This document shows positions 38,742-57,986 of a DNA stretch of 64,000 nucleotides, in pieces. A program made the translations under genes and the position numbers. Source of the DNA: a plasmid. The notes beneath the pieces were generated by a model. That model saw only the letters and a list, made by a program, of their open reading frames with translations, was not told where the DNA came from and searched no databases. The DNA lies in the sequence record NZ_CP081675.1; one strand, given 5' to 3'. Position 1 is the stretch's first letter. Every line of letters starts with the position of its first letter.

Positions 38742-40130
38742 ATGTTTGATCCGTACGCCCAACCGTATAAGCGCCCGCCACGTACCGGGCCGTACTGCGG
38801 CTTCGTGGAGCGCGAGGACCCGCAGACGCGTCGCAAGTTTTATGTTCCGGCTGAAACTGACAGCCATATATGGGTACTCGGCAGGACGGGGGCCGGCAAG
38901 ACCACTTTGGTGTTGGCGCCGATGGCGATCGCACATCAGGGTCCTGCGTTCATCGTTTCCTCGAAAGACGATCTGCTTCAGTGGATACTGCCGTACCGGC
39001 CGGGCCCATCCAAGCTCATTGATCTGCGGACTGTCCGCAATCCGATGTATCCGAAGGATGTCGAGCCGGTGCGGTTCGATCCGACTACGTCCATACAAAG
39101 TGTTGATGATGCGTATACGACGGCCTCGACGCTGCTGCAGATGGCTTCTACTGCCTATGGCGCGGGCGCACAGCAGGTTACTGACGGAGGCACGTGGGAG
39201 TCGCTAGGTGAAGGCCCGCTGGCAGCGTTTTTGTATGCGGCCTCGCCGGCACAAACGAATCTGGGGATGCGATGGGTTCTGCAGGCAATTCAGAAACCCA
39301 TCTTGTTCGAGGATGACCCCCAAGATACGCCGTCATGGGCAATGGCGGCCGAGCTCGTCAATGTTCCCGAGTTGAAGGCTGAGGTCGATCACGCCGCTGA
39401 TATGGATCCCAGACAACGCGATTCCATCTTGTTCTCGTTGTCGAAAGCCACTCGTGCATGGTTGCGGATGGCGTTGCGTGAGCAGCCGGAGGGTGCGTTC
39501 ACTCCGGAGTTTCTCGATGACCCGACCGCCACGGTGTACGTGATGGCGCCGGGCAACGGTACAACCGCCCCCGCAGCGGTGACGTTGATTGAGCAGCTTG
39601 TGGAGCGGTGGCGGGAGAAGACCTCCCAGTGGGAGGATCTGAGCCGCCTGCTGGGTGTGATCGATGAGGCACCGAATACCGCCCCGATGCCCCGGCAGGC
39701 CAATTACGTCGGTGAGGCAAGGGGTTTGGGCGCCAACTTGGTGATTGCGCAGCAGGCAAGCAATCAGACCGATATCACCCACGGCCCCATTTACACGGAA
39801 GTGCTGCGCAAGATTTTTCCGGCGGTGTGTGTGATGCACGGAGCAGCCGAGCAGGAGCTGCTGCGGGCGGCCGCCGAAGAGCGTGGGGTGCAGCATCGTC
39901 GCGGTGAAGCTCAGAGTGTCGAGGGCGGCCGCAACCAGTCGGGGCGCCTGGAGCAGGAAGTCGAATGGCAGGAGTTGATGTCACGCAACCCTGACAAGGC
40001 ACGGCTGCTGCTGCGAGGCACGGTGGGCCAAGAGGTCTATCTGCCGCACGTGACAGAGTTCGTGGCGAAATTCTGGCCCAAGATGGCCCAGAATCGAAAT
40101 GTACCGGTCAGACCGGCGGCAGTAGGCTGA
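38742..40130 (+). CDS. type IV coupling-protein-like ATPase (VirD4/TraG/TcpA type, no N-terminal TM)
   Basis: Walker A VLGRTGAGKTT and Walker B VIDEAPN; 462 aa. Confidence 0.55.
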   Translation: MFDPYAQPYKRPPRTGPYCGFVEREDPQTRRKFYVPAETDSHIWVLGRTGAGKTTLVLAPMAIAHQGPAFIVSSKDDLLQWILPYRPGPSKLIDLRTVRNPMYPKDVEPVRFDPTTSIQSVDDAYTTASTLLQMASTAYGAGAQQVTDGGTWESLGEGPLAAFLYAASPAQTNLGMRWVLQAIQKPILFEDDPQDTPSWAMAAELVNVPELKAEVDHAADMDPRQRDSILFSLSKATRAWLRMALREQPEGAFTPEFLDDPTATVYVMAPGNGTTAPAAVTLIEQLVERWREKTSQWEDLSRLLGVIDEAPNTAPMPRQANYVGEARGLGANLVIAQQASNQTDITHGPIYTEVLRKIFPAVCVMHGAAEQELLRAAAEERGVQHRRGEAQSVEGGRNQSGRLEQEVEWQELMSRNPDKARLLLRGTVGQEVYLPHVTEFVAKFWPKMAQNRNVPVRPAAVG

Positions 40131-40134
40131 CCCC

Positions 40135-41667
40135 ATGTTGCGGGTCGACACCGATGCTCTGGTGGCCGTCGCGCGGTCACTGGAAAAGACGGCAGTAGGG
40201 CTGCTCGCCGACGGTGGGGCAGTACATCCGCCGCTGGCTGCCGATGCGGCCTCGGTGACCGCAGCGACGCGCTTCACTCATCGTGCCATGGCGTTGTCGA
40301 GTGATATCCGCAATGGTGCGCGGGGGCTGCTGTCGTCCGCGGCGACATTGCGGGCCATCGCGGGCAACTACGAGGAGACCGACGAGGAGATCGCGCGCGC
40401 ACACGCAGTGCTGCAGATGCCGCGTACCGGGGCAGGGCAGGTTCCGCACGTGGAACCAATACCGGCGCGCGAAAACCGGGCGCAGGTACCGATGCCTGCC
40501 CCGGTTCCGCGGCCCGGTGAGGTGGTGGCGGCGACGTTCCATACCGGAGATGCCTCGCGTGGTGCGGGGTTCATCTCGCAGATGCAGGCCACCGCCGATC
40601 ACGCGGAATTGGCCTCGGCCGAAACGCGTTCAGCCGTGCGGGTGTTGGACTCAGCATGGAAATCTCCTGTCTCGGCCGCACCGGCGATCGAGCATCTGTC
40701 GAATCAGTCCCGGTTTTTGGGGTTGGTGGCTTCAGATCACCGTGAGACGGCTGCCTCGGCATCCCAGCACGCCCAGAACTTCGATGCGCACAAGAGTCGC
40801 GCTGATTCCCCGCAGGATTTCGAACGGCTGCGGGCACAGATAGCGCAGGTAGAGGCCGCGAACAACACCCCTCCCAATGTCGGACGTTACAGCGGACTAC
40901 TGAAATCGCTCAACGATCAGCTCACTGAGATGGAGCAACGCAACCAAAAGAACGGGGCCGAGTATCACGAGGGCGCCGACGACGGGTCGCAGGCTGATCC
41001 GCCCTCGGATGAGGCTATGGACATGGGGCAGGCGGCAGGTTTAGCGGCCGCACTCCCGGGGATGATGGCCTCGCTCGCTGCCGGCATTGTCGGGGCGGTC
41101 GGCGGCCTGGCCGCCAAGGTGCCTGAAGCGGCGGGACAAGCCGCCACACAGGCAGTTTCGGGTATTGGGTCGGCGATGGGTGCCGCCCAAAAGGGTTCGG
41201 GGCGTTTGAAGATGCCGTCCTGGGATGAGCCCGGGGTCGGCGGTCTGGGTGGTGGTGAGGGTTCTGGTGGCGGTACCGCGCCTGCCGGCGGGCTGTCCCC
41301 GGCGCCGGGCGTGCAGACCCCGCCGGCGGGCGGCCTGGACACGTCCCGCGCCGCGGTTGCCCCGCATCCGTTGCCCGCGGCGGCGCCGGCACCTGCCGGC
41401 AGCGGGGGGATGGGGATGGCACCCATGGGGGGCATGGGCCCGATGGGTGCAGGTGGCGGCGCGGGGGAGAAGGACAAGGGCGGCAAAGAGCACAAAATTT
41501 TGGTGCGGGCGCCGCGCAACTCCGAGCCGGTCAAGGGAGTGCTGCAGCCAACAGGGCAGGACCGCCAGCAATCTGAGGCCAATGAACCTGCAGGGGAGAA
41601 TGGTCAGCCAGAAGGCACGCGGCGGATCGTGCTCGGCAGCCGTAAGGCAAAACCCGCTGACCAGTGA
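40135..41667 (+). CDS. PE-like N-terminal domain protein with YxxxD motif and Gly/Ala/Pro-rich C-terminus (putative ESX substrate, Esp-like)
   Basis: Helix-turn-helix Ala-rich N-terminal ~95 aa ending in NYEETDEE (Y-x3-D); long GGxGG low-complexity tail. Confidence 0.45.
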   Translation: MLRVDTDALVAVARSLEKTAVGLLADGGAVHPPLAADAASVTAATRFTHRAMALSSDIRNGARGLLSSAATLRAIAGNYEETDEEIARAHAVLQMPRTGAGQVPHVEPIPARENRAQVPMPAPVPRPGEVVAATFHTGDASRGAGFISQMQATADHAELASAETRSAVRVLDSAWKSPVSAAPAIEHLSNQSRFLGLVASDHRETAASASQHAQNFDAHKSRADSPQDFERLRAQIAQVEAANNTPPNVGRYSGLLKSLNDQLTEMEQRNQKNGAEYHEGADDGSQADPPSDEAMDMGQAAGLAAALPGMMASLAAGIVGAVGGLAAKVPEAAGQAATQAVSGIGSAMGAAQKGSGRLKMPSWDEPGVGGLGGGEGSGGGTAPAGGLSPAPGVQTPPAGGLDTSRAAVAPHPLPAAAPAPAGSGGMGMAPMGGMGPMGAGGGAGEKDKGGKEHKILVRAPRNSEPVKGVLQPTGQDRQQSEANEPAGENGQPEGTRRIVLGSRKAKPADQ

Positions 41668-41688
41668 CAACGGTCAATCTCGGGGGGA

Positions 41689-42090
41689 TTGTACACAGGG
41701 GCAAAGCCCTTTGTAGACAACCAGCGGGGGCCGTGTTTGGATCATTTTGTGGAGATTCCGGATCTACCTTCCTCCGAGGCGCTACGTCGACTGCCACCGG
41801 AACAGCGAGTGATGGCGACCCAGGCAAAGCTGCAGCGGGTGCAGGAAGTGTTCAAGAGCAAGCGTCAGGAACTCGACTCGTTAACCTCTGATGCCGGCAC
41901 CAGTGACGGTCTGGTGCACCTGGAAATCCACGGTGACGGTCAGTGGAAGCGGTTCACCTTGCATCCGGCGGTGGCCGCCCGTCTGACCAACATCGAGCTT
42001 GAAGAGATCATGAACGAAATCTTCACCGTGGTCAACGAGGACGCACGCAGTCAGTGGGCACAATGCCTGTCTTTCGACAGGCCGGCCTAG
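41689..42090 (+). CDS. hypothetical protein
   Basis: 133 aa ORF. Confidence 0.3.
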   Translation: MYTGAKPFVDNQRGPCLDHFVEIPDLPSSEALRRLPPEQRVMATQAKLQRVQEVFKSKRQELDSLTSDAGTSDGLVHLEIHGDGQWKRFTLHPAVAARLTNIELEEIMNEIFTVVNEDARSQWAQCLSFDRPA

Positions 42091-42097
42091 CGTAAAA

Positions 42098-42604
42098 ATG
42101 GGGGGACTTATGACTGACACAGACCGAAGTGGTCCGGCTGAACGCTGTGTTGAGTACCTCTGTGTCAACAATGCTGGCGACGCGCTGATCCTTGTCACCA
42201 CCGATGGCAACTACAGGAACTTCCGGCTGTACGTGGGAAGCCTAGGGGCTGAGATGCGTGAGGTCACAGTGTTCGATGCGGAGCGGATGCGTGACGGGGG
42301 AACGACCTGGATCTTCACTGCCGAAGGTACTTTCTTCGCGCCGTCCCCGCTCCGCCCGCCGGAGTGGGGACTAGGCTCAGACGGCTCTTGTGTTTGGCCA
42401 ACGGCAGACTTAGTGGGGGACACATGGGGATTGCCAACCGCCGATACGTTCCGGCCGCCCTTGCCGTTACCCAGCCCCGAGTCCTTCAAACTGGTTGACC
42501 GCGCGGTGTATGTCGATGTGGGATCCGCCACCGACGATCGAATCCTCATTGAACGCGCACAGACGGCTCTCGCGGCCGGTCACAGTAGGAGAGACAACGC
42601 ATGA
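42098..42604 (+). CDS. hypothetical protein
   Basis: 168 aa; ATGA overlap with next gene. Confidence 0.35.
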   Translation: MGGLMTDTDRSGPAERCVEYLCVNNAGDALILVTTDGNYRNFRLYVGSLGAEMREVTVFDAERMRDGGTTWIFTAEGTFFAPSPLRPPEWGLGSDGSCVWPTADLVGDTWGLPTADTFRPPLPLPSPESFKLVDRAVYVDVGSATDDRILIERAQTALAAGHSRRDNA

Positions 42605-42981
42605 CGCACGCCGCCCCCACCGGTATCGAAGCGGCCCTCAGGCTCGTTCCGCCCCTGTGGGGTGTGCACGGTTGGTCGCTCGCTCGCAGCGAGCAGAACG
42701 GCGATGTGACATGGGCGTTGGCCGTGATCGCGCAGGGCACTGTGTCCTCACCGGAGCATCTGCTTCTGTTTTACCGCGGCGCCTACATTGGGACCGCCAC
42801 CGCGGATCCGCGCCCGTACACGCGTGTTCTCGACGTCACCGGTGATGTGGTGACGGTGGAGTATCGATGGCCTCTGGGCGAGGAGCCGTTGGCGGCACCG
42901 GCTGGTGTGGGCACCGTCCGTTACGAGGTCAGCGCCCAGGGGGTACGGCCGTTGGACGCACCGCCGTGGCCGCAGCCATGA
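42601..42981 (+). CDS. hypothetical protein
   Basis: 126 aa; translationally coupled to upstream ORF. Confidence 0.35.
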   Translation: MTHAAPTGIEAALRLVPPLWGVHGWSLARSEQNGDVTWALAVIAQGTVSSPEHLLLFYRGAYIGTATADPRPYTRVLDVTGDVVTVEYRWPLGEEPLAAPAGVGTVRYEVSAQGVRPLDAPPWPQP

Positions 42982-43229
42982 GCCGCAAGTACGGCGCGTT
43001 CACCGCTGAGTGCGGCGACGACGTTGGGCGGCCTCGCGGTATTCGCGGAGATCTACGCGAAACTCGTGGGCGAGGAAGACCAGCAACCGGACTAGTACGG
43101 CAACCGCGGCGATCATTGCCAGCAGCCACATCGTGGCGATGAGGACGTCGGTGTCAGACAGCTCGGCGAGGCGGCTCATAAGGGCTAGGGTACTTGGCTT
43201 CAACGTTGTCCGGCCGATGCGCCATCAAG

Positions 43230-43805
43230 TCAGATTCGCGGTGTGTGATCCCGCGCTTCCATGATTTGGAACGTTTCGATCTCGGCTTCGGGCCGCTTCA
43301 ACGGTAGCCAGTCTTGGCTTTCGGGTATGGCTAGCCAGCCTTCGAGGATGCCGTAGCCGGCGGCGATGAGTAGGGCTGCGGGGATTTGCCAGATCAGCCA
43401 CGGCACCACCAGGACGCCGAGCACGCTCATGGGCGGGTCGTAGAACATCGGCAGCGCGATGCCGGTGAGTGCTGCGAGTCCGAACAGCATGGCTAGCGGG
43501 TAGGCGTAGAGGCGCTGTGGGATAAGGGACACAAGGTAATTGGATAGAACCCGGGCGATGGCCCAGCCGACCGGCGCTACGGCTGCGAGCACTAGCACTG
43601 CTGCACCTTCGGCGTAGTCGGCGGGGGTGTTCCATTGGCGCTGCCAGATGGTGGGGGTGATTTCGTCTTCGTGCTGATCGGGGGACGGTGTGAACTCGTT
43701 GCGGCGGCGGCGCCGCAGCGACCGGCCGAGTAGTTCGGCGCGGCGGTGCTGCATGAGGAAGGGCCCTTGGTTGTGCATGATCCATTCACGCCGTAGGTCA
43801 TCGAC
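43230..43805 (-). CDS. hypothetical membrane protein (start set at internal Met; upstream ORF part looks non-coding)
   Basis: C-terminal 190 aa has 4 TM helices; N-terminal 110 aa of the long ORF is Arg/Pro-rich junk and overlaps 43826..44314. Confidence 0.3.
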   Translation of the reverse strand, partial: VDDLRREWIMHNQGPFLMQHRRAELLGRSLRRRRRNEFTPSPDQHEDEITPTIWQRQWNTPADYAEGAAVLVLAAVAPVGWAIARVLSNYLVSLIPQRLYAYPLAMLFGLAALTGIALPMFYDPPMSVLGVLVVPWLIWQIPAALLIAAGYGILEGWLAIPESQDWLPLKRPEAEIETFQIMEARDHTPRI

Positions 43806-43825
43806 GTGTTGGGTACAGGTGCGCA

Positions 43826-44314
43826 TCAGGGAATCCAATCGTGAGAATGCTGCAGTGTGTGGTGCAGCTGGGTCATGAGGCGCTGGGAGTTTGTCAAGTA
43901 GTCGTGTGCGGCTTGGAGGCTCTCGCGCATCTGGTTGGTGGTGTGTGCGGCTGGGTATTGGTCCACGGCGGCATAGGTTTTGGTGATCGCCTCGCTGATG
44001 TGGTCGGCGTCTTGGCGGATTTGGTTGTTGAGTTGGGTTGCCTGGCATAGCAAGGTGTGCAGGGGCCCTGGGAAGTCCAGCGGTACGGGCACGGTGCCGT
44101 CGCGGGCTGCACGCATTGTCGAGCCGGGTGGCCATTGGAGTGCGTTGTCGATGCGTAGGGCCATGCGCTGTGTGAGCGTTCGTTGGCCTGCGAAGACTTT
44201 CGCCATGTGTGAGCGTGATGGCCCGCCTAGGGCGGCTAGATCACCGCGCCGGCAACCCATCGCCATCAGTCGACGGCCGATGTACTGATCCAGACGGGCG
44301 TCGACAGTGAGCAC
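43826..44314 (-). CDS. XRE-like HTH protein
   Basis: N-terminal HTH-like LAALGGPSRSHMAKVFAGQRTLTQRMALRIDNAL. Confidence 0.3.
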   Translation of the reverse strand: MLTVDARLDQYIGRRLMAMGCRRGDLAALGGPSRSHMAKVFAGQRTLTQRMALRIDNALQWPPGSTMRAARDGTVPVPLDFPGPLHTLLCQATQLNNQIRQDADHISEAITKTYAAVDQYPAAHTTNQMRESLQAAHDYLTNSQRLMTQLHHTLQHSHDWIP

Positions 44315-44379
44315 AATTCGAGCCTATCGCCGCTTTGGCGCAGTTCAACTTCACCTGAACCGGGCTTACGATCCGAACT

Positions 44380-44778
44380 ATGTGGAAGGTTCTGTTGTCG
44401 ATCTTCATCTTTGGGGCCATCGCAGGGCCGTTGATCGCGTTGGTTTTGGGTGCGGTGACGGTGCTGATTGTCATGGTCGTGTCTGTGGTGGGGGCGGTGT
44501 GTGCGCTGATGTGGGCCGGCACCAAGGGGGTATGGCGCTGGGCTGGGGCTCAGCCCATATCCGCGACAGACTCAGCGCGACGTGATGTACCGGCCGAAGA
44601 CGTGCCGCTGGTGGGTCCGCGTTACCGCGGCGCGGAGCTCGCCGACATGCCAGGCCCTGATGCATCGGGGAAGGACGCGGATGAGTCGATTTTCGAGCAG
44701 TACCGGCGCCGGCATCCGGGCGGCGGTGTGGGTCGCGCCCTGGTGCTCGATACCCGCGCCTACCCGAAGACGCCATGA
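44380..44778 (+). CDS. small membrane protein
   Basis: 132 aa, two TM helices; overlaps next gene by 4 nt. Confidence 0.35.
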   Translation: MWKVLLSIFIFGAIAGPLIALVLGAVTVLIVMVVSVVGAVCALMWAGTKGVWRWAGAQPISATDSARRDVPAEDVPLVGPRYRGAELADMPGPDASGKDADESIFEQYRRRHPGGGVGRALVLDTRAYPKTP

Positions 44779-45806
44779 GCGAGACCGATGCACAGTTCTT
44801 GCGGCGCATCTACCCGGAGGCCGCCGCCGGGGATAGCCGCGACGACGACATTGTGATCCTTGACGAGGACCAGCTCGAGGCGAGTGCTGACGAGAACGTG
44901 CCGACAGCAGATGACGACGATGACCAGGATTTCGGGGACCGGTTTTCCACTGTAGCCATCGAGCAATCCGAGATCGAGAAACCTGCGGGCAGGCAGCAGG
45001 ATTCAGATGAGGACAGCACGGTCAATGGGCGTACCAAGACCACCTTGGCGGTGTTGGGCGGTGTCGGTGTGTTTGTGGCCGTGGTGATCATCGTGATGGT
45101 CAATGTGTTGAGCAAAGATACTGCGGCTGTGGCCGCACCCGAACCTCAGCGCAGGGTCAACGTCGCCGGTTCTGTGACGACACCGCCGGTTTCGGCGACT
45201 GAGTCCGCCAGCACGGACCGGTCCATGCCTTTCGAGGCTTCCGCCGACTGCGGGGAAGGCTCGACGACAGCACGCAACGTCGAAGATCCCACCGGCGACA
45301 GCGCGTGGGTGTGTTACGGGCCGGGGCTGGGACTGGGGCAGCCGATCGATTTGAAGTTCTCCGATGACATCACCGCGGTGGCGATCAAGCTGGCGCCGGG
45401 CTGGCTGGCCAAACGCCCGGGCGGCAAGGAGGAGTGGGGCCAGCACCGCATCATCACCAAGATCCGGTGGTGGTTCATGAACGATGTCAAGGGCCGCTAT
45501 GTCGACCAGGACACCAAGAACGTGAAAGGCATTGCGACGGTGCCGGTGGAGAACATCCGCACTCGCTGGATTCGGGGAATCGTGGTGCAGACTTCCCGGC
45601 CGCCCACAGATCAGGTGCCGCAGAACTCGGCACCCTCGGGTGGCGGAATTTTCGGGGGCTTGTTCGGCCCGGACGGGTCGAGTTCACCGGGTAGCCCAGG
45701 TACCGGGGATGCACCTAACGCTTCCTCGGATCCGGGCTTGCGCGATGCGATCGATCAGTCGTTCGCGACCAGCCGGATCGAGGTGATAGGCCATGTTCCG
45801 AACTGA
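44775..45806 (+). CDS. acidic N-terminus / single TM / extracytoplasmic domain protein (conjugation-associated?)
   Basis: 343 aa; Asp-rich N-term, TM LAVLGGVGVFVAVVIIVMVNVL. Confidence 0.4.
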   Translation: MSETDAQFLRRIYPEAAAGDSRDDDIVILDEDQLEASADENVPTADDDDDQDFGDRFSTVAIEQSEIEKPAGRQQDSDEDSTVNGRTKTTLAVLGGVGVFVAVVIIVMVNVLSKDTAAVAAPEPQRRVNVAGSVTTPPVSATESASTDRSMPFEASADCGEGSTTARNVEDPTGDSAWVCYGPGLGLGQPIDLKFSDDITAVAIKLAPGWLAKRPGGKEEWGQHRIITKIRWWFMNDVKGRYVDQDTKNVKGIATVPVENIRTRWIRGIVVQTSRPPTDQVPQNSAPSGGGIFGGLFGPDGSSSPGSPGTGDAPNASSDPGLRDAIDQSFATSRIEVIGHVPN

Positions 45807-45853
45807 GAATGTGGTGTGTAGAGATTTGCCGGACGGCATGAGGGAATAGTGGC

Positions 45854-46810
45854 ATGACGCGGACCTGGAAGAACCGTTTCAAACTGTTCGGTAAAGTTGT
45901 TGGGATTCTGCTGGCCATTTATTTGAGCTTTTGCACGATAGTTGCTGGCACGTCCACTACATGGAGCTGGATACGTCCGCCTGAGGGTCCGAATGTGCGG
46001 GGTATCTCTCAGACGACATCGAACGAGAGCGCGGTGGCCACCGCCTGGGCGATCGAGTGCTTTGCGCTGTTTAAAATCGCCACTACCGCGGAGCGGGACT
46101 TGCTCAAAGATTGCTTTCCTTTGCCTGACGATTACGCGCTGCCGGAGACCCCGAAGATCTTCATCACGACGCCGCTGGCGTTGACGACGCTGGAAGACAA
46201 GCGCCAGTCCACCAGTACCGCGCAGCTGTACACCGTGTTCTTGACGACGCTGGAGCGCCCGTACGCGGGGGCTGCTGCTAAGCGTGCCTATTACGCCGTG
46301 CCGGTCAGCGTGGTGGATCACGGTCCGGCTGGTGTCAGCCTTCCAGAGCGTCTCGGGGGGCCGCCGGCTGGGGTCAGGTTGGCAACGCTCTACAGCTACG
46401 CAGTGACAACCCCTGATGTGAAGACGGGCAAGGGCGGAGCCCCGCTGGCCACCGATCTGGCGGGATTCTTCACGGTGTTCCTCACAACCAGCGATGCAGG
46501 GCAGCTGGCCCATTACGTCACCGGGACCGCCCAGATTGGGCCTCTGGGGGCCTATCAAACGGCGTTCTTGACCAAACTCGAAGCTACTCAACCGATTCCG
46601 GACAACCCCGTTGAGGGTACCGAACGGCAGGTGCTGGCTCAGGTGACAGTGCAAACCGAACAAGTGTTGGACTGGCCCATGACCTACCCGTTGACAGTCA
46701 CTTTCACCAAGGGCGCTTGGGCCGTGTCGCGCTTGGACTACATGCCGCTGGTCGACGTAAGCGCAGACGCCATCGAATCCGCGGCATCCTCACCGACCTC
46801 TACCCGATAG
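45854..46810 (+). CDS. VirB8/TcpC-like protein with N-terminal TM and duplicated domain
   Basis: TM helix then two repeats containing YTVFLTT / FTVFLTT; architecture like tandem NTF2-like domains of Gram-positive VirB8 homologues. Confidence 0.4.
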   Translation: MTRTWKNRFKLFGKVVGILLAIYLSFCTIVAGTSTTWSWIRPPEGPNVRGISQTTSNESAVATAWAIECFALFKIATTAERDLLKDCFPLPDDYALPETPKIFITTPLALTTLEDKRQSTSTAQLYTVFLTTLERPYAGAAAKRAYYAVPVSVVDHGPAGVSLPERLGGPPAGVRLATLYSYAVTTPDVKTGKGGAPLATDLAGFFTVFLTTSDAGQLAHYVTGTAQIGPLGAYQTAFLTKLEATQPIPDNPVEGTERQVLAQVTVQTEQVLDWPMTYPLTVTFTKGAWAVSRLDYMPLVDVSADAIESAASSPTSTR

Positions 46811-46821
46811 GAGAATTCCTG

Positions 46822-47127
46822 ATGACTACCCAGATTCTTGCGGCGGTGAACCCGTTCTCGTTCATACAGAGCACGGCGGTGCAGGTCGTGATCACCGGCG
46901 TGTCGGTGGTTTTCGCTGTCGGTGCAGTGGTGACGGTGAAGAGCATGATGAGCAGGCATGGAGGTATTGGCGCCGCGGTGGCATCAGCACTCGGGGTGAT
47001 CTTGGTGGCGTGCATTGTGGGCGCGGGTTGGGGTGCTTACAGCCTGCTGGGCGGCTGGCTCAATAGCCAAGGTGTTCGGACGGTGCAAGTGGTTCCGCCC
47101 GGCGGCGGCACCCCGTACGGCAGCTAA
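46822..47127 (+). CDS. small two-TM membrane protein (pilin/VirB2-like position)
   Basis: 101 aa from ATG with GGAGA RBS; two hydrophobic helices. Confidence 0.35.
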   Translation: MTTQILAAVNPFSFIQSTAVQVVITGVSVVFAVGAVVTVKSMMSRHGGIGAAVASALGVILVACIVGAGWGAYSLLGGWLNSQGVRTVQVVPPGGGTPYGS

Positions 47128-47139
47128 GGACTTCTCGTT

Positions 47140-47493
47140 ATGGCGCAAGAGGATTCAGCGCAGCTGTTCAGCTCGTTTCGGGATGTCCCGATATCGATCT
47201 CGGAGTCGGACTCGTTCAAGATCCCTCTGGGGCCATGGGGCCCAGTGGATCTGGTCATCGGTGTCCTAGGTTTTGCCTGGACTGTGTTCTGGGTGATCAT
47301 CAACCTCGATAACGATCCCCTGACTAAGGGCATTTTCAGTGTCATGATCTCGGCGGGCGCGGTGGCGGCGGCACGGCAGATCAAGAAGGGCCGGCCGCCT
47401 CTGCTCACGCGGTTCGTGTGGATGGTGCGCCGCTGGTTCCCTCAAATCGTCGACACGGGCGACGGAATCTACAAGAAACCGTTACGAAAGTAG
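47140..47493 (+). CDS. small membrane protein immediately upstream of VirB4-like gene (VirB3-like position)
   Basis: 117 aa, one or two TM helices. Confidence 0.35.
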   Translation: MAQEDSAQLFSSFRDVPISISESDSFKIPLGPWGPVDLVIGVLGFAWTVFWVIINLDNDPLTKGIFSVMISAGAVAAARQIKKGRPPLLTRFVWMVRRWFPQIVDTGDGIYKKPLRK

Positions 47494-47533
47494 CTCTGTA
47501 GCACTTCGGGCATACCGGGGTTAGCGTCTATTT

Positions 47534-50098
47534 GTGCAAATACAACCCCCGGAATTCGCAGAGAAAAACCTATCTGTCTGTGACGGTGGCGTCTACGCAA
47601 ACTATTTGCTATCCGGCATGCCATACATGTTCAAGCGCAAGGAACGTCGCCGCCGGTTCGCAGAGCTGCACCGCCAGCTCACACAGGCCTTGCCGTCGGG
47701 GACGTTGCTGTATCTGGTGGCCGCACCGACTGACATCGACTTCATCATGCGACGCGCCCTCTGGGGTCACCTGAGCCCGGCGCAGCTGCGGCGCGCGGTC
47801 GCGGGGGAGTTGCAGGATCCGTGGGTTCAACACGTGCAGGCCTATGAATCCACTTTCCGGGCCTACGCGCCGTATCAGCGTCTGTTCTGGATCGCGATGC
47901 CTGTGGATGCCGGGTTGGAAGGGTACGCCAAAGGCTCTGCAAAGCAACGTTTCCGGAACTGGTTGGCCGGCGCCGACAGTGAAGCCGCTACCACGCTGGA
48001 GGGCTGGCGGGAGACTGCAGACACGATGGTGCGGGGGCTGCCGCGTGACTTCAAACCCACACCGGTCACCGAAGCGCAGCAAGAGTGGTTCTGGGATCAG
48101 TTCTGCTCCCTTGGTGCGTTCAACGACCCGTTCCCGGCACCGACGGTGCCGGCGCGCGGTGTTTTCCGGCGCGCCAAGTTCCACCCCCGCGGCGGCCGGC
48201 GCGACGAATCGATCCTGAAAGTGACGCGCCCGGACAACCCCGAGATCAGGCCGAGCTATCAGAGTGTGTTGACGCTGTTCAGCGCCCAGAAACTGCGATT
48301 CCCTGGCTCGGAGATCTTCAAATTGATCGACCACATCGACCCCTCCCTGGGCCGGGTGAACTGCGCGATGCGGCTGAGCTTGAACCACGTGCAGGACGAG
48401 AAGAATCACAACACCAGTACCGCCAAGAACATTCGAGACCAGGTCCGCCAGCGCGGTATCGCAGCGCTCAATGACGACGAACTCAAGCACCAGATGCAGG
48501 ATCTGCGCGAGTACAACAATCTGCTCAGCGCCGAACCTGGGCAGAAGGGCATGAACGTCGATGTCGTGTTCGCTGCCGGGGCGGACTCGTTGAGCAAAGC
48601 GCGCCACCTGGAACAGGCGTTGCTCAACATCATGGATCGCTCGCGAGTTACGTTGAAATCATTCCCCGGGTCACAGGCCGGGTTGATCAAGATTTTCGCT
48701 GTCGGCAACGAAAAGCAGGCCGGACTCGACGGTATGGGCCATCCGACGACACCGACGAAGTTCTCTCGGTTCGTGCCGCTGATCTCCACCGGCTTGGGCA
48801 ACTCCACAGGCATACCGCTGCTGGTGAACTATTCGACGTTGCGCCGCGAGATCGTGCTCTTGGACCTGCAGGGGGCCTCGGGGCGCGGACATGTGGGCGT
48901 GATCTTGATCGGTGGATCACCTGGTGGCGGTAAGTCGCACTGCTCGAAGATGATTGTGATCGGACTGATGAAGCGCCGCTCACGGATTCACGTCGTGGAC
49001 CCCACTGATACTCGTGAATGGGAGAAGGCGATCGGGCGGGAGCCTGGGGTCAAGGTGATTGATGTGGCCGGCGGCAAGGTCTCCATGGACTTGCTGCGCC
49101 TACTGAGCCCCGACGTCGGCGGGGAGGTGTTCGTCGACCATCTCATGCCATTGTTGGGATATCCGGCAGAAAGCAGCGAGGGTGATCGCTTGGAGCTGCT
49201 GCTGGAACCCGCCTCGCGCGACACTAACGGCATCGGCAGCTGGAACCGGCTGGTGGAAGTGTTGAGGCGAGAGGCCAGCACTGACGCCGACCGGGAAATG
49301 CTCAACAAGTTCGAGGTGCTGTCCAACCGCTCGTATATGCGGGCGCTCACCGATGAGTTGTTGGAAGCCCCTGATATCAGCAAGCTTTCAGGACTGGTGT
49401 GGAACATGGCCGGCATTCCGCTGCCCACCAGCACCGAGAACGACACCGAGCATTTAGCGAGCCGGATATCGCGGCGCGAGCGGGCGGGGCAGGCTATCTA
49501 TGGCATCTGCGCCGAACTGTCGCAGCAGTTGTTCTTCAACGATTCGCAGAGCAGCGATTTCATCGTGCTTGAGGAGGCCGAGGGCTATTTGAACTCCCCG
49601 GCCGGCGGCAAGCGGGCTCACAAGATCACTCGCGAGGCCCGGCGCCTGCAAACTGGCCTTGTCGTGATCAGCCAGAACCTGATCAACGACTGCAGGAAGA
49701 TGGGGACCGAGTTCGTGACCCAAACGATCCTGACCCGCTTCGATGAAGATGATGTCGCCAAGGCTCATCTGGAGCGGTTCATGGGGATCACCGAGGCCGA
49801 GTATCCCGACGTGGTGCGTCGCTACATTGACGATACTTCACCGCCGGAGCTCAATGACACCCTCGAAATGTCGATGGCTACTGATGATTTCGATATGGCC
49901 ATGTCAGATTTCGGCAAGACGATATCTGGGCGTGAGGGTGAGTGCTTTTTCCGCGACGAGTTCCGTCGGGTCGGGCGCGGCAAGCTGCTGGGCGCACCGA
50001 CTGCTGAGTTGGCAGACAGACTCAACACCAACCCAAACGAACAAAAGAGCGGCGACGGGGACGGTAAGCCGAGCAATGGTCAGCGGGGTGCGGCGTGA
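47534..50098 (+). CDS. VirB4/TraC/TcpF-like conjugation ATPase
   Basis: 854 aa; Walker A GGSPGGGKS, Walker B FIVLEEAEGY in C-terminal half. Confidence 0.75.
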   Translation: MQIQPPEFAEKNLSVCDGGVYANYLLSGMPYMFKRKERRRRFAELHRQLTQALPSGTLLYLVAAPTDIDFIMRRALWGHLSPAQLRRAVAGELQDPWVQHVQAYESTFRAYAPYQRLFWIAMPVDAGLEGYAKGSAKQRFRNWLAGADSEAATTLEGWRETADTMVRGLPRDFKPTPVTEAQQEWFWDQFCSLGAFNDPFPAPTVPARGVFRRAKFHPRGGRRDESILKVTRPDNPEIRPSYQSVLTLFSAQKLRFPGSEIFKLIDHIDPSLGRVNCAMRLSLNHVQDEKNHNTSTAKNIRDQVRQRGIAALNDDELKHQMQDLREYNNLLSAEPGQKGMNVDVVFAAGADSLSKARHLEQALLNIMDRSRVTLKSFPGSQAGLIKIFAVGNEKQAGLDGMGHPTTPTKFSRFVPLISTGLGNSTGIPLLVNYSTLRREIVLLDLQGASGRGHVGVILIGGSPGGGKSHCSKMIVIGLMKRRSRIHVVDPTDTREWEKAIGREPGVKVIDVAGGKVSMDLLRLLSPDVGGEVFVDHLMPLLGYPAESSEGDRLELLLEPASRDTNGIGSWNRLVEVLRREASTDADREMLNKFEVLSNRSYMRALTDELLEAPDISKLSGLVWNMAGIPLPTSTENDTEHLASRISRRERAGQAIYGICAELSQQLFFNDSQSSDFIVLEEAEGYLNSPAGGKRAHKITREARRLQTGLVVISQNLINDCRKMGTEFVTQTILTRFDEDDVAKAHLERFMGITEAEYPDVVRRYIDDTSPPELNDTLEMSMATDDFDMAMSDFGKTISGREGECFFRDEFRRVGRGKLLGAPTAELADRLNTNPNEQKSGDGDGKPSNGQRGAA

Positions 50099-52032
50099 TC
50101 GCGGCGTGGTGGTACACCCGCTCGCCGCGGCTGCGCTGGACCATCCGGATCTATACGGTGTGCTATCTAGTGTGCGCGTGGATGATGAAGTCGCAGGCCG
50201 CGATTGCTCGCGCCGATGACACTACCGAGGCGGTATCGCGCTCAGGGAACATGATGGGCTGGACCGGGCTGCACAGCCTGCGCGGAATCCCGTCGGCGTC
50301 GATGCATCTGATCACGTTGTCGGATCGGCGCGGAAATGGGTTCTTCGACGTCATTCTAGCGATCGTGCAGGTCTTCAAAGACATTGTCACCTTTACCTTT
50401 CCGGCGGGCCTGCTGACCGGTGCGGTGGCCTGCTTTCTGCTATTTATGTCCCTGATCCTGTGGCTGTTTAAGTTCGCGCAGTCGATGGTGTGGCTGCAGT
50501 GGCTCGCGGCGCTGTTCGCGCCCCTGTTCACGGCGCTGGTGCAGGTGGTGGTGCAGCTGGGCATCTTGCCGGCATGCTTGGTTGTCGGGCTGACAACCGG
50601 TGGTGTGGTGTTCATGCTGGGTGAACGCGGGCGCGGCATGGCGATGATGGCGGCCGCGTTCGGGGTCGGATTGTTAAGCCTGGCGTTCTTCTCTGATCCT
50701 GTGGGCGATCTGTACTCGCCCGACACGGGGCTACTGGCGACCATTCGGCATTTGGGATTTCAGGTGGGTGAGGCCGCTGCGCGCAATGGGGCGTTGCCGG
50801 GCGCCACCGGTGCCGCCCAGCTCGACAATGCGATGGCCCGCATGGTGACCTCCCTGCAGGAGGGGCCGCTCATGCAGGTCAACTTCGGCCACGTCCTGGG
50901 GTCGCAGTGCGACGGGGCCTACAAGGAGGCATTGGCCACCGCTGATAGCTCTGCGGCGCTGGATAAGATCAGGGGATGCGATAGCGACGCGGCCGATTAC
51001 GCTGAACACCTCGCGTGGGAGGCGTTGGCGGCTGTCGGGATCTTCGGGCTGCTGGCGGCCGTGATGGGCCTGTTCATCATCTACGTGGTGGTCGCTGAGG
51101 TCGAAGTGGGTTTCAAGGCAGGTGCCTACGCCATCAGTGTTGTACCGATGAGCGGTCCGGGGGCGATTCCAGGTCCGACACAACGTGTGTGGATTCAGTT
51201 GATCAAGAACTTGGGCATGGCCGGGTTGGAATGGTTCGCCTACACCGTGTTCGCCTCATTCATTGCGGTGCTGATGATCTCGGCCACGGGAGAGGAGTTC
51301 GCAGCACGCACGGGCATCAACCATCCGGTGGTGAAGTTTCTGGTGGCGACGATCTTGTCGGCGGCGGCGATCGTCGCGTTCTGGAAAATCACGGGATCGT
51401 TTCGCACCATGTCGTTTCGCAAAGTGTCCAAGGCCATGTCGGGCCCGGCGACAGCGGCGCAAGCGGCCATGCTGGGTACCTTCGCCAAAGGACAATCGGC
51501 CGGCGAATGGGCGCATAACTGGCTTAATTCGCGCGGCGAGGGCGAATCAGACAGCGCCGACGACGAGGATAGCGATGGGCAGGGTAAGAACAGCCCCCGA
51601 GATCCCGACGTGCCGACCCTTCCCGACAACATTCCCGAAACGGTGGTGCCCACTACCGCCTCAGCCCCGGACAGCCGAGAAGTGCAGGGCTCTACCACCT
51701 CACGCACTCAAGCGGCGGCCGACGCGGCAGTGGCCACGGCGGCCCCGGAGGCCGCGGTGGCCCAGCGTGTCGCCGAACGCGTCCGTGGCCGTGGCCACGG
51801 CGAAAACGAGGACCCCAGCGCCGGCGGTGGGGGTGCGGGCGTCACACACGCAGCCCAGCGGTACCTGACCGATGATCACCAACCCGACCATGATGGGGCT
51901 CCGCGCCGCGGGGACGTGGACAGCACGCCGGCCGTGCCGGGTCTGCCCGACGTGGCGGCCGACACGGCCAATCGCGAACCGAGCAACGACGGACCCGGAC
52001 CCACCGTTCAGACAACACCGGAAGGCGAATAA
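50095..52032 (+). CDS. VirB6/TrbL/TcpH-like polytopic membrane protein with acidic C-terminal tail
   Basis: 645 aa; ~8 TM helices; ATGA overlap with VirB4-like gene. Confidence 0.5.
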   Translation: MIAAWWYTRSPRLRWTIRIYTVCYLVCAWMMKSQAAIARADDTTEAVSRSGNMMGWTGLHSLRGIPSASMHLITLSDRRGNGFFDVILAIVQVFKDIVTFTFPAGLLTGAVACFLLFMSLILWLFKFAQSMVWLQWLAALFAPLFTALVQVVVQLGILPACLVVGLTTGGVVFMLGERGRGMAMMAAAFGVGLLSLAFFSDPVGDLYSPDTGLLATIRHLGFQVGEAAARNGALPGATGAAQLDNAMARMVTSLQEGPLMQVNFGHVLGSQCDGAYKEALATADSSAALDKIRGCDSDAADYAEHLAWEALAAVGIFGLLAAVMGLFIIYVVVAEVEVGFKAGAYAISVVPMSGPGAIPGPTQRVWIQLIKNLGMAGLEWFAYTVFASFIAVLMISATGEEFAARTGINHPVVKFLVATILSAAAIVAFWKITGSFRTMSFRKVSKAMSGPATAAQAAMLGTFAKGQSAGEWAHNWLNSRGEGESDSADDEDSDGQGKNSPRDPDVPTLPDNIPETVVPTTASAPDSREVQGSTTSRTQAAADAAVATAAPEAAVAQRVAERVRGRGHGENEDPSAGGGGAGVTHAAQRYLTDDHQPDHDGAPRRGDVDSTPAVPGLPDVAADTANREPSNDGPGPTVQTTPEGE

Positions 52033-52165
52033 CAATGAAACCTTGGTATTGGTCCCTTGGCGCTGCCGTAGGGGTGCTGGTGTGGGAGGTTGGGGTGTAT
52101 TTCTCCGGCATTGTGAGTCTGGCGTTCTCAGCGGCTACTACGTTCAACCCGGGAGGCTGAAATCT

Positions 52166-53995
52166 ATGCCGACAACAGCAAGCAGCAAGTTCGCCGAAGG
52201 CCTGCGGCACCTGGGGTTGCTGCCGGGCGTGGCAACCAGCAGGACTGATGCCGCCACGGCGGCGGGGTGCTTTCGTGAGGCCACCCGTCTTGACTCGACG
52301 ATGTGTGATGCCTGGTTGGGTTTGGCCTATGCCCAAGGTTCCACCGTCCAAGTCCTGGCCGCGGCGCACACTCATGCCCGCAACATGTATCGGGAAGTGC
52401 GCAGCCTGGAAGTGCCCGACAGCCATCTGGCGCCCATTGTGCGTACACCGATCGGCGGCAATTTCACCATCACCAGCAAGACGGCCCTGGCGGCCGGGTA
52501 TGCCGGGTTGCTGGTCAGTGACCGCCGCTTCGATGACGCCGAGAATTTGCTGATTGAACTCAACCAACCCGAGAACACCTACGTGACGTTGATATCGACG
52601 ATCCTGTACGCGGTTACCGAACGTTGGACCGATGTGCTCACCACGGCAGACCAGGGCCGACGCCCCGCCGATGTGACGATGGCGGCCACCGTGGATGCGC
52701 TCACCGCACAGGCGGCCGCGAAAATGGGACAGTTCGGGCGGGCGGTGGAGCTCGCCGAATTTGCATACCTGCACGGCGAGCCAGCGACGAAAGGGTCTGC
52801 GGCGCTGACCGCGGGCCTGGCGCTACGCAGCCTGAGCCAGTCCGAGAAGGCCACTGAATGGCTGACCAAGGCAGCGGCCACCGGAACCAGCCCGGAAGCC
52901 AAAGCAGCACTGGATAACTCTGGCTATGTTCTGACCGTCATCACTGAAGATGTCATCAACGCGCGCACCAACCGGTGGGATCCCAGCAGTGCACCATCGC
53001 TGGAGGAGCTCGAGCGCGAGATGCGCCGCATCGGCGACCCGGAGCTGTTGGCTGAGGGGGAAGCCGAGCTTGCCGCCCATGTGGGTCTGGTCGTGGTTAA
53101 GGATCGGATAGAACAGCTCAAGACTGCCCAGAAGTTTGACTTGGAGATGCGGGCGGCTGGTGAGCCGGTCGGTGAAATCGAAAGTCTCTGCATGACTTTC
53201 GTTGGTGAACCGGGCACGGCGAAGACCTCAGTAGCGAAGGCTACCGGCAAGATTTTCTGCGGATTGGGGTTGCTGCGATTCCCCGATGTGTATCGGGTAA
53301 CGCGCATGAACCTCGTGGGCGAGGCGATCGGTCAAACAGCGCAGCGCACCAGCGAGTGGCTGGAGCGGGCACGTGGAGCCACGCTCGTGGTCGACGAGGC
53401 TCACGAGTTGTGGAAACCGCAGACCACGAATGATTTCGGTGTGGAAGCTCTCGATACCATCATGAATTTCGCTGAAGAGCACCGCCGCGACATCATGATC
53501 ATCCTGGCCGGATACAAGCTTCGCATCGACGCCATGCTCGATGCGAACCCAGGTCTGCGAAGCCGGTTCCCTGTGCAGCTGGAATTCCCGTCGTACTCGG
53601 CCGAGGAGATGCTCTCGATCAGCGACGTGATCGCCCGGCTGAGTTCTAAAGCGATTCTCGATCCCAGCGCACGTGGATACCTGGCCGCGATTTTCACCGA
53701 ACTGACCAGCAAATACGAAGATTACAATCCTTACGGCGGGGAGCCGCGTCTACTGGTTGACCGCGCCGCCAACGGGCGCTTCGTTCGCATGCTGCTGACG
53801 GAGGCTTCCATCTGGATGAAGAACCGGGCGATGAGCGACTCACTGATCGACCGGAGCACACCGGATGGGCGCCGCCTAGCTCGCACATTGTGCGAGGCAG
53901 ACCTGCGCCGCGCGGCGCCGCTGGTGTTGAAGGCGCAAAAGTGCGATCCGCAGATCGCCGATGTGAACGCCGATAGCGCTTTGATCGCGCTGTGA
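52166..53995 (+). CDS. eccA: ESX conserved component EccA (TPR-like N-domain + CbxX-type AAA+ ATPase)
   Basis: Walker A GEPGTAKTS, Walker B LVVDEAHEL, arginine finger region; N-terminal TPR-like helical repeats. Confidence 0.8.
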   Translation: MPTTASSKFAEGLRHLGLLPGVATSRTDAATAAGCFREATRLDSTMCDAWLGLAYAQGSTVQVLAAAHTHARNMYREVRSLEVPDSHLAPIVRTPIGGNFTITSKTALAAGYAGLLVSDRRFDDAENLLIELNQPENTYVTLISTILYAVTERWTDVLTTADQGRRPADVTMAATVDALTAQAAAKMGQFGRAVELAEFAYLHGEPATKGSAALTAGLALRSLSQSEKATEWLTKAAATGTSPEAKAALDNSGYVLTVITEDVINARTNRWDPSSAPSLEELEREMRRIGDPELLAEGEAELAAHVGLVVVKDRIEQLKTAQKFDLEMRAAGEPVGEIESLCMTFVGEPGTAKTSVAKATGKIFCGLGLLRFPDVYRVTRMNLVGEAIGQTAQRTSEWLERARGATLVVDEAHELWKPQTTNDFGVEALDTIMNFAEEHRRDIMIILAGYKLRIDAMLDANPGLRSRFPVQLEFPSYSAEEMLSISDVIARLSSKAILDPSARGYLAAIFTELTSKYEDYNPYGGEPRLLVDRAANGRFVRMLLTEASIWMKNRAMSDSLIDRSTPDGRRLARTLCEADLRRAAPLVLKAQKCDPQIADVNADSALIAL

Positions 53996-55614: not shown

Positions 55615-56004
55615 ATGGCTGACGTACTGGTCAAAGCTGCGAACGACACCGCCCGCATGGACACTCACGAGGTCGTCGCCTACCTGTTGGCGCGGCTCGG
55701 TCGCACCCTGACCGCCTACATCGCCGGCTCGAAGAGCCGCGCCATGCCCGCCAGGTGGGCCGCTCCCCCAAATGACCCGACGCACGCCAAACCCTCCGAC
55801 GAAAAGGCTCGGCGCCTGACCGCGGCGCACGCCGTGTTCCGGTCGATCGAGGACGCAGAGAACGATCAGGTGGCGCGCAACTGGCTGATTTCGGCCAACC
55901 CGCGACTCGACGGCCTCACCCCGGCACAGCTCGTACGCGAGGACCGGATTCCCGAGGTCTACCGGGCAGTCGAAGCATTCATCACCGACACCTATCACGC
56001 CTGA
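55615..56004 (+). CDS. Xre/MbcA/ParS-type antitoxin (DUF2384 C-terminal domain)
   Basis: C-terminal WLISANPRLDGLTPAQLV matches antitoxin toxin-binding motif. Confidence 0.55.
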   Translation: MADVLVKAANDTARMDTHEVVAYLLARLGRTLTAYIAGSKSRAMPARWAAPPNDPTHAKPSDEKARRLTAAHAVFRSIEDAENDQVARNWLISANPRLDGLTPAQLVREDRIPEVYRAVEAFITDTYHA

Positions 56005-56051
56005 CCTGGCCCGTCCCTATACTCAGCCGGATCGCTGTGTAGAGGGGGTAG

Positions 56052-56849
56052 GTGCGGGTGACGTCCTTTGACGTTGGCGTCTGCGCGGCGACAGGTCTGA
56101 ACATCGTTGCCAGCGCCGGCCAGAGCATCTACCGGGTCGCCAGCACAGACTACGGACCGGTCAATCCTCCGGCGCGAGAGCTCGGCGGCGTCCCGGTCGA
56201 GGGCTGGTCGCGGTGGGACACGCTGGGGCGCACCATCTATGGGTGCTCGACGGCCACCGGCGCGTTCGTCGAAGTGCTCGAGTACATCACGCCCGATCCC
56301 CCGGCCACGCCGATGGAGGAGTTGTTCGACGACGTCGGCCCCGACGATGCCGCGACGTTCGCCGAGCAGGTCGCCCGGGAACTGCCCGCCCACGGGGCCA
56401 TGGCCTACCGGTCGATCCCGCGGGGATGGAGGGAAGAGCGATCGCTCTATGAATTGCGGCTGCCCGGCAGTGGGTGGTTTGTGAACATCACCGGAGCCCA
56501 ATCATTGTCGGTCGTCTCCAAGCAGCTCAGCTCGCTGGTGGCGCAGTGCGGGATCGATCAGCTCACGGTCAGCGAGTTGACGAGCTCTTCTGAGGAATAC
56601 AAGAAGTTGACCACGGGGATCGCCACGTGGGTTCGGGAGTCGGTGGTGCTCGCCAACGGCGATAGACCGCACGGGATCGTGTACCCATCGAAATGGGGTA
56701 TCACGCTGGACAATTGGGCGATGTGGCTGCGACGCGCCGACGATCAGACCGGAGTCGATCCGATTGCCGTCACCGCCACCGATGGGATTGGCCGGCACAC
56801 GAGACCATTTGTTGAGGCGGCGACGTTGCGTCATATGCGGATCTTCTAG
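56052..56849 (+). CDS. RES-domain toxin (MbcT-like NAD-targeting family)
   Basis: Arg...Glu...Ser signature segments GRTIYGCSTATGAFVEVLEY and HGIVYPSKWG; downstream of Xre-type antitoxin. Confidence 0.5.
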   Translation: MRVTSFDVGVCAATGLNIVASAGQSIYRVASTDYGPVNPPARELGGVPVEGWSRWDTLGRTIYGCSTATGAFVEVLEYITPDPPATPMEELFDDVGPDDAATFAEQVARELPAHGAMAYRSIPRGWREERSLYELRLPGSGWFVNITGAQSLSVVSKQLSSLVAQCGIDQLTVSELTSSSEEYKKLTTGIATWVRESVVLANGDRPHGIVYPSKWGITLDNWAMWLRRADDQTGVDPIAVTATDGIGRHTRPFVEAATLRHMRIF

Positions 56850-57984: not shown

Positions 57985-57986
57985 GA

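Follow-up and report, generated by a model that had tools for sequence, protein, structure and literature searches.

A divergent ESX-P-type locus on a mycobacterial plasmid holds a type IV-like gene block that probably encodes a Tcp-like mating channel

Conjugative plasmids of mycobacteria are known in which a type VII secretion (ESX) locus stands beside genes of a type IV secretion system (T4SS). Conjugation of pRAW from Mycobacterium marinum needs both virB4 and eccC (Ummels 2014, PMC4173767), and a virB4 mutant of pRAW loses conjugation (PMC4173767). The ESX-P genes adjoin those of type IV, and eccA moves together with the latter (Dumas 2016, PMC4779608). The type IV parts recognized in the pRAW paper (PMC4173767) and in papers of 2025-2026 are only VirB4, VirD4 and a TcpC/VirB8-like protein, plus the relaxase; VirB6 and VirB3 equivalents were not identified in the pRAW paper (PMC4173767). 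Here we analyze a 64,000-nucleotide stretch of the plasmid record NZ_CP081675.1, called the window below, in which the ESX locus is complete and its eccE and eccA enclose a type IV-like block at 38742-52032. We conclude that this block is very probably the module for the mating channel of a conjugative plasmid of the mycobacterial ESX-P type, with a Gram-positive type IV core resembling those of the Tcp and Tn916 systems. The arrangement has already been published (PMC4173767, PMC4779608), and the window is a divergent copy of a known conjugation locus.

The ESX-P/type IV-like loci of pELW1-1 (NZ_CP032156) and pCBMA213_2 (KY349138), two plasmids of fast-growing mycobacteria, have a one-strand gene order like that of the window. 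Common to the window and pELW1-1 is the succession of eccD, mycP, eccE, a virD4-like gene, a gene for a membrane protein with three transmembrane (TM) segments, a gene for a protein of about 350 aa, a tcpC-like gene, two genes for small membrane proteins, a virB4-like gene, a gene for a polytopic protein of about 650 aa and eccA, with 27-43 % identity between the proteins (VirB4 34 %, EccB 41 %, VirD4 39 %). An FtsK/SpoIIIE-like gene follows eccE in pELW1-1 but not in the window, whereas a 2.9-kb cassette, a minus-strand gene for a 243-aa protein, an inverted 3-TM gene and the insertion of an IS605 insertion sequence (IS) are found in the window and not in pELW1-1. The pRAW-type plasmid pMAH135 shares with the window the VirB4, VirD4, TcpC, 645-aa, 343-aa and 3-TM families adjoining an ESX locus, but its type IV genes lie beside that locus and are convergent with eccA, with virD4 divergent, rather than between eccE and eccA. 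VirB4 is about 30 % identical between the window and the pRAW-like plasmids (pRAW, pMAH135, pMyong1). Synteny links the block to pELW1-1, to pMAH135 and, by its reported gene content, to pRAW. An earlier, sequence-only reading of this DNA had taken the co-localization of type VII and type IV parts as the signature of a mycobacterial conjugation machinery that needs both systems, a view supported by the family assignments and by the synteny.

The core of the block can also be laid beside the tcp locus of pCW3 from Clostridium perfringens, which has the order tcpA, tcpB, tcpC, tcpD, tcpE, tcpF, tcpG, tcpH. The orf13-orf17 region of Tn916 is related to this locus. In the window the tcpC-like gene, the genes for a 101-aa and a 117-aa protein, the virB4/tcpF-like gene and the tcpH-like gene are collinear with tcpC-D-E-F-(G)-H. 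TcpC is regarded as the VirB8 counterpart and TcpH as the VirB6 counterpart (PMC6137059). The two systems differ in the coupling protein, which is the FtsK-type TcpA in pCW3 and of the VirD4/TrwB type in the window; in the TcpG-like hydrolase, absent from the window, where a membrane protein with a CBM32 fold and the 3-TM protein occur instead; and in the setting, since the window's module is fused to an ESX locus and belongs to a diderm-like host. Distributive conjugal transfer of M. smegmatis, like the model we propose for the window, needs a type VII system (ESX-1/ESX-4) for DNA transfer (PMC12857230), but that system is chromosomal; a VirB4/VirD4/TcpC module, a plasmid and transfer of the relaxase type are all absent from it.

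The VirB4-like protein (854 aa) matches Pfam AAA_10 with 56.4 bits (3e-15, cut-off 27.5), and both Walker motifs can be located, GSPGGGKS (A) at 48914-48937 and FIVLEE (B) at 49559-49576. When its family was compared with pCW3 TcpF, hhalign gave a probability of 98 % (E 2e-14) over 710 columns, and the family keeps its N-terminus from residue 1, making the protein TcpF-like at full length. It scores far under the cut-offs of the NCBIfam equivalog models, and searches of the Protein Data Bank (PDB) with the single VirB4-like or VirD4-like sequences gave nothing or noise.

Walker A (GRTGAGKT, 38880-38903) and Walker B (LLGVIDEA, about 39648-39668) were likewise read from the translation of the VirD4-like protein (462 aa). 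Its relatives match the coupling-protein families T4SS-DNA_transf and TraG-D_C in 14 of 14 cases and TrwB_AAD_bind in 13, and the family profile finds TrwB of R388 (1E9R) in the PDB at E 1.6e-6. An hhalign comparison with the FtsK-type TcpA of pCW3 gave an alignment confined to the P-loop. By these profile matches the coupling protein is assigned to the TrwB/VirD4 type and not to the FtsK type. An FtsK-like identity of the two ATPases, which the sequence-only reading had itself named as the finding that would speak against it, is ruled out by the TcpF, TrwB and TraG-type profile matches; they are assigned as VirB4/TcpF-type and VirD4/TrwB-type.

The 318-aa protein belongs to the TcpC (VirB8-like) family: it matches Pfam TpcC with 28.4 bits (cut-off 27), all 16 relatives match as well (best 3e-14), and hydropathy places its TM segment at residues 9-36. 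The duplicated domains that had been proposed for it were not seen by sequence when the N-terminal and C-terminal halves of the family were compared (hhalign E 0.024, 23 columns).

The last protein of the block (645 aa) has an N-terminal signal-like anchor followed by about seven hydrophobic segments, a loop (about 110 residues) in which two cysteines are conserved throughout the family, and a C-terminal tail that is long, of low complexity and rich in acidic residues, proline and alanine. Its family comprises 384 representatives after clustering at 50 %. Deep alignments of this family match the membrane domain of pCW3 TcpH in hhalign at 85-92.5 % probability (E 5e-7 to 6e-6) over 155-427 collinear columns, and the conserved Pro258 aligns with the proline of the VQQPW stretch of TcpH. 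Controls with reversed TcpH, 20 block-shuffled TcpH sequences and EccD scored at most 32, compared with 61 for the real TcpH. We consider the 645-aa protein a probable distant homologue of TcpH and hence a candidate VirB6 analogue. None of 68 family members matches VirB6/TrbL (PF04610) or another relevant Pfam family, but TcpH itself is without a Pfam family and this negative therefore says little. The family profile found only low-complexity noise and no VirB6 chain among PDB sequences, and an AlphaFold model of the membrane domain from a 4-sequence alignment (pLDDT 36) was not used for a fold search. The VirB4-type and VirD4-type ATPases, the VirB8/TcpC-like protein and the polytopic VirB6-like protein that the sequence-only reading had named are all recovered by family comparisons, the last of them as a distant likeness to TcpH. 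As the polytopic component we also considered the 510-aa open reading frame (ORF) downstream of the virD4-like gene, which is ruled out by its single hydrophobic segment at about residues 300-329.

Between the tcpC-like and virB4-like genes lie two small membrane proteins, of 101 aa and 117 aa. Both are conserved in all related loci examined; the family alignment of the second covers 24 loci, and it is 32 % identical to its pELW1-1 counterpart. We dropped their identification as TcpD, TcpE or VirB3 at the sequence level; only size, topology and position agree, and their equivalence to TcpD and TcpE is positional only.

Two further core genes encode proteins of the cell envelope. The 343-aa protein upstream of the TcpC-like protein has an acidic N-terminal tail, one TM segment and an extracytoplasmic domain for which Foldseek finds a discoidin/CBM32 fold (E 4e-5) with CBM32 modules as top matches; NCBIfam points the same way with a weak hit to a glycan-binding discoidin domain. 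The 3-TM protein is 43 % identical to the product of pELW1-1 15650-16306 and has no Pfam family. Its gene was found in 30 loci, nearly always on the plus strand (in pMAH135 it is on the minus strand beside virD4), which indicates that it is inverted in the window. The 132-aa protein that precedes the 343-aa protein is the positional counterpart of pELW1-1 16917-17285, with no detectable sequence similarity.

The same organization is found in other mycobacterial genomes. The order virB4-like gene, 645-aa gene, eccA on one strand is shared by pELW1-1 and 28 of 36 related genome loci, and mycP/eccE lie upstream in 12 of those 28 loci within the DNA fetched. This recurrence shows that the arrangement is not due to chance. 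One exception is L037, a plasmid contig of Mycolicibacterium sp. P1-18, which has about 7 kb between the tcpC-like and virB4-like genes and no eccA after the 645-aa gene.

To place the window among its relatives we compared proteins and DNA. A 91.8-kb contig of Mycolicibacterium farcinogenes encodes a protein that is 100 % identical to the 645-aa protein, and homologues in M. chelonae, M. abscessus and Mycobacterium sp. D16R24 reach 84-86 % identity; close relatives are found on contigs of 86-122 kb in five species. The closest relative, L005, a contig that carries the label M. vanbaalenii BC8_1, keeps the same genes and is collinear with 92-94 % nucleotide identity. Compared with complete plasmids, protein identities are 30-42 % (best VirB4 34 %, EccB 42 %), megablast found no plasmid matching the block, and DNA searches of the window yielded only IS elements and short backbone pieces. 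By these comparisons the window represents a deep lineage that is not in the plasmid collection and was previously uncatalogued.

The features of the locus are collected in Table 1. The placement of the block between eccE and eccA, as the sequence-only reading had it, is borne out by Pfam matches for both genes, and its limits coincide exactly with ORF boundaries, the start of the virD4-like gene and the end of the 645-aa gene. The plasmid-type ESX set is complete (eccB, eccC, PE/PPE, esx pair, espG, eccD, mycP, eccE, eccA), all core type IV and ESX ORFs are full length with motifs kept, and the G+C content of the window is 61-66 %. The description of the block as a single operon-like unit on the plus strand has to be given up. 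Five close-set plus-strand ORFs of 462, 510, 133, 168 and 126 aa (38742-42981) are followed by a short minus-strand unit formed by the 3-TM and 162-aa genes, possibly with the doubtful ORF at 43000-43203, and then by a second plus-strand run of ORFs of 132, 343, 318, 101, 117, 854, 645 and 609 aa (44380-53995). Two plus-strand runs with a minus-strand unit between them imply that the block is not one operon. Several gene junctions overlap, with ATGA at 42601 and 44775, GTGA at 50095 and TGATG at 43826. A scan for promoters and terminators gave hits no more numerous than in shuffled sequence. The doubtful minus-strand ORF at 43000-43203 (67 aa, one TM segment) may reflect an indel or a small extra gene; the segment 43003-43230 cannot be aligned to the closest relative, which has only about 77 bp there.

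Table 1. Features of the ESX and type IV-like locus in the window
Feature	Position	Strand	Basis and remarks
eccB	17559-19040		Pfam
eccC (fused)	19071-23219		Pfam
PE	25873-26172		Called from position only
PPE	26172-27368		Pfam
Two WXG100 genes	27456-28097		Pfam
espG	28297-29304		Pfam
ParA-like gene	29378-31285		Pfam
eccD	31278-32837		Pfam
Mycosin (mycP)	within 32444-34477		Pfam
eccE, final ESX membrane-complex gene ahead of the block	34474-36060	+	Pfam EccE 1.9e-15; homologous to pELW1-1 eccE
IS200/IS605-family element	36056-37905		TnpA 37382-37810 (+); TnpB split, 36603-37358 and 36091-36669 (-)
243-aa protein	37915-38646	-	No Pfam or NCBIfam match
VirD4/TraG/TrwB-type coupling ATPase, 462 aa	38742-40130	+	Motifs, family profiles
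510-aa protein, PE-like then PPE-like N-terminal halves	40135-41667	+	Sub-threshold Pfam, hydropathy
133-aa protein, weakly YbaB/DUF2710-like	41689-42090	+	Below cut-off: YbaB_DNA_bd 2e-4, DUF2710 1.7e-3; NCBIfam YbaB 3e-3
168-aa protein	42098-42604	+	No Pfam or NCBIfam match; stop overlaps next start (ATGA)
126-aa protein, LppP/LprE domain	42601-42981	+	Pfam Lipoprotein_21 5e-19, 68.6 bits
Membrane protein, about 3 TM segments, core gene	43230-43826	-	Hydropathy; TGATG overlap with upstream gene
162-aa protein, possible helix-turn-helix regulator	43826-44314	-	Weak match to pELW1-1 16321-16827 (-); Pfam HTH_3 only E 0.17
132-aa protein, N-terminal membrane segment, opens second plus-strand run	44380-44778	+	Hydropathy; ATGA overlap with next gene
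343-aa bitopic protein, discoidin/CBM32 fold, conserved core gene	44775-45806	+	Foldseek, weak NCBIfam
TcpC-family (VirB8-like) protein, 318 aa, N-terminal TM	45854-46810	+	Pfam TpcC, hydropathy
101-aa protein, two TM segments	46822-47127	+	At TcpD position of pCW3
117-aa membrane hairpin protein	47140-47493	+	At TcpE/VirB3 position
VirB4/TcpF-type ATPase, 854 aa	47534-50098	+	Pfam AAA_10, hhalign to TcpF, Walker motifs
645-aa polytopic protein, probable TcpH-like VirB6 analogue	50095-52032	+	Hydropathy, hhalign; GTGA overlap with virB4-like gene
eccA, ESX AAA+ ATPase, directly 3' of the block	52166-53995	+	Pfam T7SS_EccA1_N 1e-50 and AAA; Logan contig gene call

Not all genes of the block belong to the conserved type IV core. 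Among the related loci compared, homologues of the ORFs in 40135-42981 and of the 243-aa gene were found only in the closest relative. The 510-aa protein has the layout of a possible EspB-like PE-PPE fusion and is a candidate ESX substrate: its Pfam matches to PE (17.7 bits, cut-off 22, E 0.004), EspB_PE (16 bits, cut-off 29, E 0.017) and PPE (21.9 bits, cut-off 26, E 2e-4) are below the cut-offs and stand in the correct PE/PPE order, a YxxxD motif (YEETD) is at residue 79, and the tail is rich in glycine, alanine and proline. BLAST and PDB sequence searches with this protein gave no support for a PE-PPE or EspB identity. With moderate confidence we regard 40135-42981 as a lineage-specific accessory cassette of ESX-substrate type rather than part of the conserved T4SS core. 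The small proteins between 41689 and 47493 had been described as motif-less and as possible novel structural parts. The first statement stands for those without a family match and falls for three, given the LppP/LprE domain of the 126-aa protein, the weak YbaB match of the 133-aa protein and the CBM32-like fold of the 343-aa protein; the second does not apply to the genes within 40135-42981, which are lineage-specific with type VII-substrate-like features and not structural parts of the T4SS.

We propose the following course of transfer. A relaxase encoded outside the window would nick the origin of transfer (oriT), and the VirD4-like protein would pass the complex of relaxase and single-stranded DNA to a channel in the cytoplasmic membrane. 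This channel would be made of the TcpH-like, TcpC-like and small membrane proteins, with the VirB4-like ATPase as power source, and the CBM32-like protein may bind cell-wall glycan, standing in for the missing hydrolase. The co-encoded ESX system, with its eccA linked genetically to the type IV genes, would supply the step across or at the mycomembrane, or would secrete mating factors; we assign it this role because pRAW genetically requires both systems. It is conceivable, although quite doubtful, that a Tcp/Tn916-type channel (TcpC, TcpH-like, VirB4 and the two small proteins) crosses the arabinogalactan-mycolate envelope by way of dedicated partners, namely the universally conserved CBM32-fold glycan binder and, in this lineage, the EspB-like PE-PPE fusion encoded within the type IV operon, which the ESX system would export and which would form an outer conduit or contact structure. 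If this were true, these partners would be the long-sought physical link that explains the need for both systems.

A number of observations weigh against assigning the block to a working mating channel. A tblastn search with the MobF relaxase of pELW1-1 gave no match in the window, no oriT was found in it, and the small FtsK/TcpB-like ATPase of pELW1-1, to which a small VirD4-like gene described for pRAW probably corresponds, is absent from it. The VirD4-like protein alone reaches 19.8 bits with Pfam T4SS-DNA_transf and 20 bits with TraG-D_C, 0.3 and 2 bits short of the cut-offs. Canonical VirD4-type coupling proteins have an N-terminal transmembrane anchor, and hydropathy finds no hydrophobic segment in the 462-aa protein, hence no such anchor; its relatives are of similar length. 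The match to TcpH, a comparison of a profile with a single sequence, vanishes with shallow alignments, and the 101-aa and 117-aa proteins compared with TcpD, TcpE (PF12648) and VirB3 reach only hhalign E values of 0.08-0.8, with no Pfam match in 20 members. The IS605 element at the junction of eccE and the type IV genes and an IS3 element between eccC and the PE/PPE genes could disturb expression. Transfer of the window's plasmid lineage is a prediction from its genes, the requirement for both systems has been shown only for pRAW, and pRAW itself failed to transfer to fast growers (PMC4173767).

Several of these observations would fit a decaying remnant, in which the genes are still recognizable but the plasmid no longer transfers itself owing to IS insertions and missing parts. 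The IS605 element, recognized by Pfam Y1_Tnp (4e-46), Cas12f1-like_TNB (1.5e-19) and HTH_OrfB_IS605, lies directly 3' of the eccE stop and is not in the otherwise collinear closest relative; its TnpB, unlike the intact TnpA, is broken into two ORFs; between eccC and PE there are an IS3 copy and a duplicated 655-bp fragment; and neither the FtsK/TcpB-like ATPase nor a relaxase was found in the window. However, the core ORFs are full length with conserved motifs and tight junctions, the IS elements are intergenic and each has its own target-site duplication, and the closest relative at 92-94 % DNA identity retains the same genes. TcpB is dispensable in pCW3 (PMC6137059), and the approximately 28 kb of contig beyond the window could hold the relaxase. 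We therefore think it unlikely that the locus is a remnant. The two IS3-family copies concerned are direct and identical (100 %, 1364 bp, 24391-25754 and 57001-58364), each encoding orfA (108 aa) and orfB (317 aa, rve domain). A separate 3-bp target duplication accompanies each copy (ACG and GAC), which indicates independent insertions and rules out a composite transposon formed by the two. Between the copies lie the genes from PE to eccA and with them the entire type IV block, which recombination between the copies would delete.

A different question is whether the region sits on a plasmid or is part of a chromosomally integrated element, such as an integrative and conjugative element or an island. 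Some related loci are on contigs of 300-580 kb and the window holds no nameable replication gene, but the identical 645-aa protein is on a 91.8-kb contig and its close relatives in the five species are on contigs of 86-122 kb, the annotated homologues in the plasmid collection are all on plasmids, and the ParA gene, toxin-antitoxin genes and several IS elements in the window are typical plasmid content; chromosomal integration is accordingly very unlikely. It could also be asked whether DNA passes through the type IV-like proteins at all, or whether these serve protein secretion or ESX assembly, or DNA moves double-stranded by an FtsK/TraB-type mechanism as in Streptomyces. EccC is itself an FtsK/SpoIIIE ATPase, the tie between eccA and the type IV genes would suit such a role, and in M. 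smegmatis ESX alone mediates chromosomal transfer (PMC12857230). Against this, the coupling protein is by its profile of the TrwB/VirD4 type and not FtsK-type, the related plasmids pELW1-1 and pMAH135 carry MobF relaxases next to the module, and the pRAW virB4 mutant is without conjugation, leaving hardly any room for this explanation. The assignment as the mating-channel module of a conjugative plasmid is the one we retain.

Other observations concern the remainder of the window. The ParA/MinD-like ATPase within the ESX locus (635 aa), between espG and eccD, is also present in pELW1-1 and pMAH135. Directly 5' of eccB (15314-17255) two genes encode a 539-aa DUF4226 protein and a 101-aa EspC-like protein of the WXG type, both probably further ESX substrates. 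The 655-bp segment mentioned above is an exact direct repeat (14481-15135 and 23736-24390) that derives from a 394-aa ORF at 14009-15193 without Pfam match; its second copy is downstream of eccC and abuts the first IS3 copy. At 55615-56849, 3' of eccA, a protein with an Xre/MbcA/ParS-type antitoxin C-terminal domain is followed by a weak RES-domain protein, a probable toxin-antitoxin pair.

An IS1380-family transposase is at 112-1518, and positions 1-1691 of the window are 100 % identical to copies on NC_021279 and AP022622, two plasmids of M. abscessus, a sign of a shared host pool. The minus-strand gene at 9772-11748 encodes a 658-aa protein that occurs widely on plasmids of actinobacteria (Arthrobacter, Rhodococcus, Mycobacterium). 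Its counterpart on CP065285.1, a plasmid of M. abscessus, is 79 % identical, and the EccB of that plasmid only 39 %; this difference implies that the backbone and the ESX/type IV module have different histories.

Plasmids of the type found in the window spread among non-tuberculous mycobacteria, including clinical fast growers, and the macrolide-resistance gene erm(55) is carried on related T4SS/T7SS (type VII secretion system) backbones (PMC12816644). The window adds to them a new lineage with members in M. farcinogenes, M. chelonae and M. abscessus, among others. The gains in annotation are modest: the probable link to TcpH together with the tcp-type collinearity, a core protein with a CBM32 fold, and a possibly EspB-like accessory protein in a new plasmid lineage. 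The TcpH link, the tcp order and the CBM32-fold protein offer concrete targets for the question of how DNA crosses the mycobacterial envelope.

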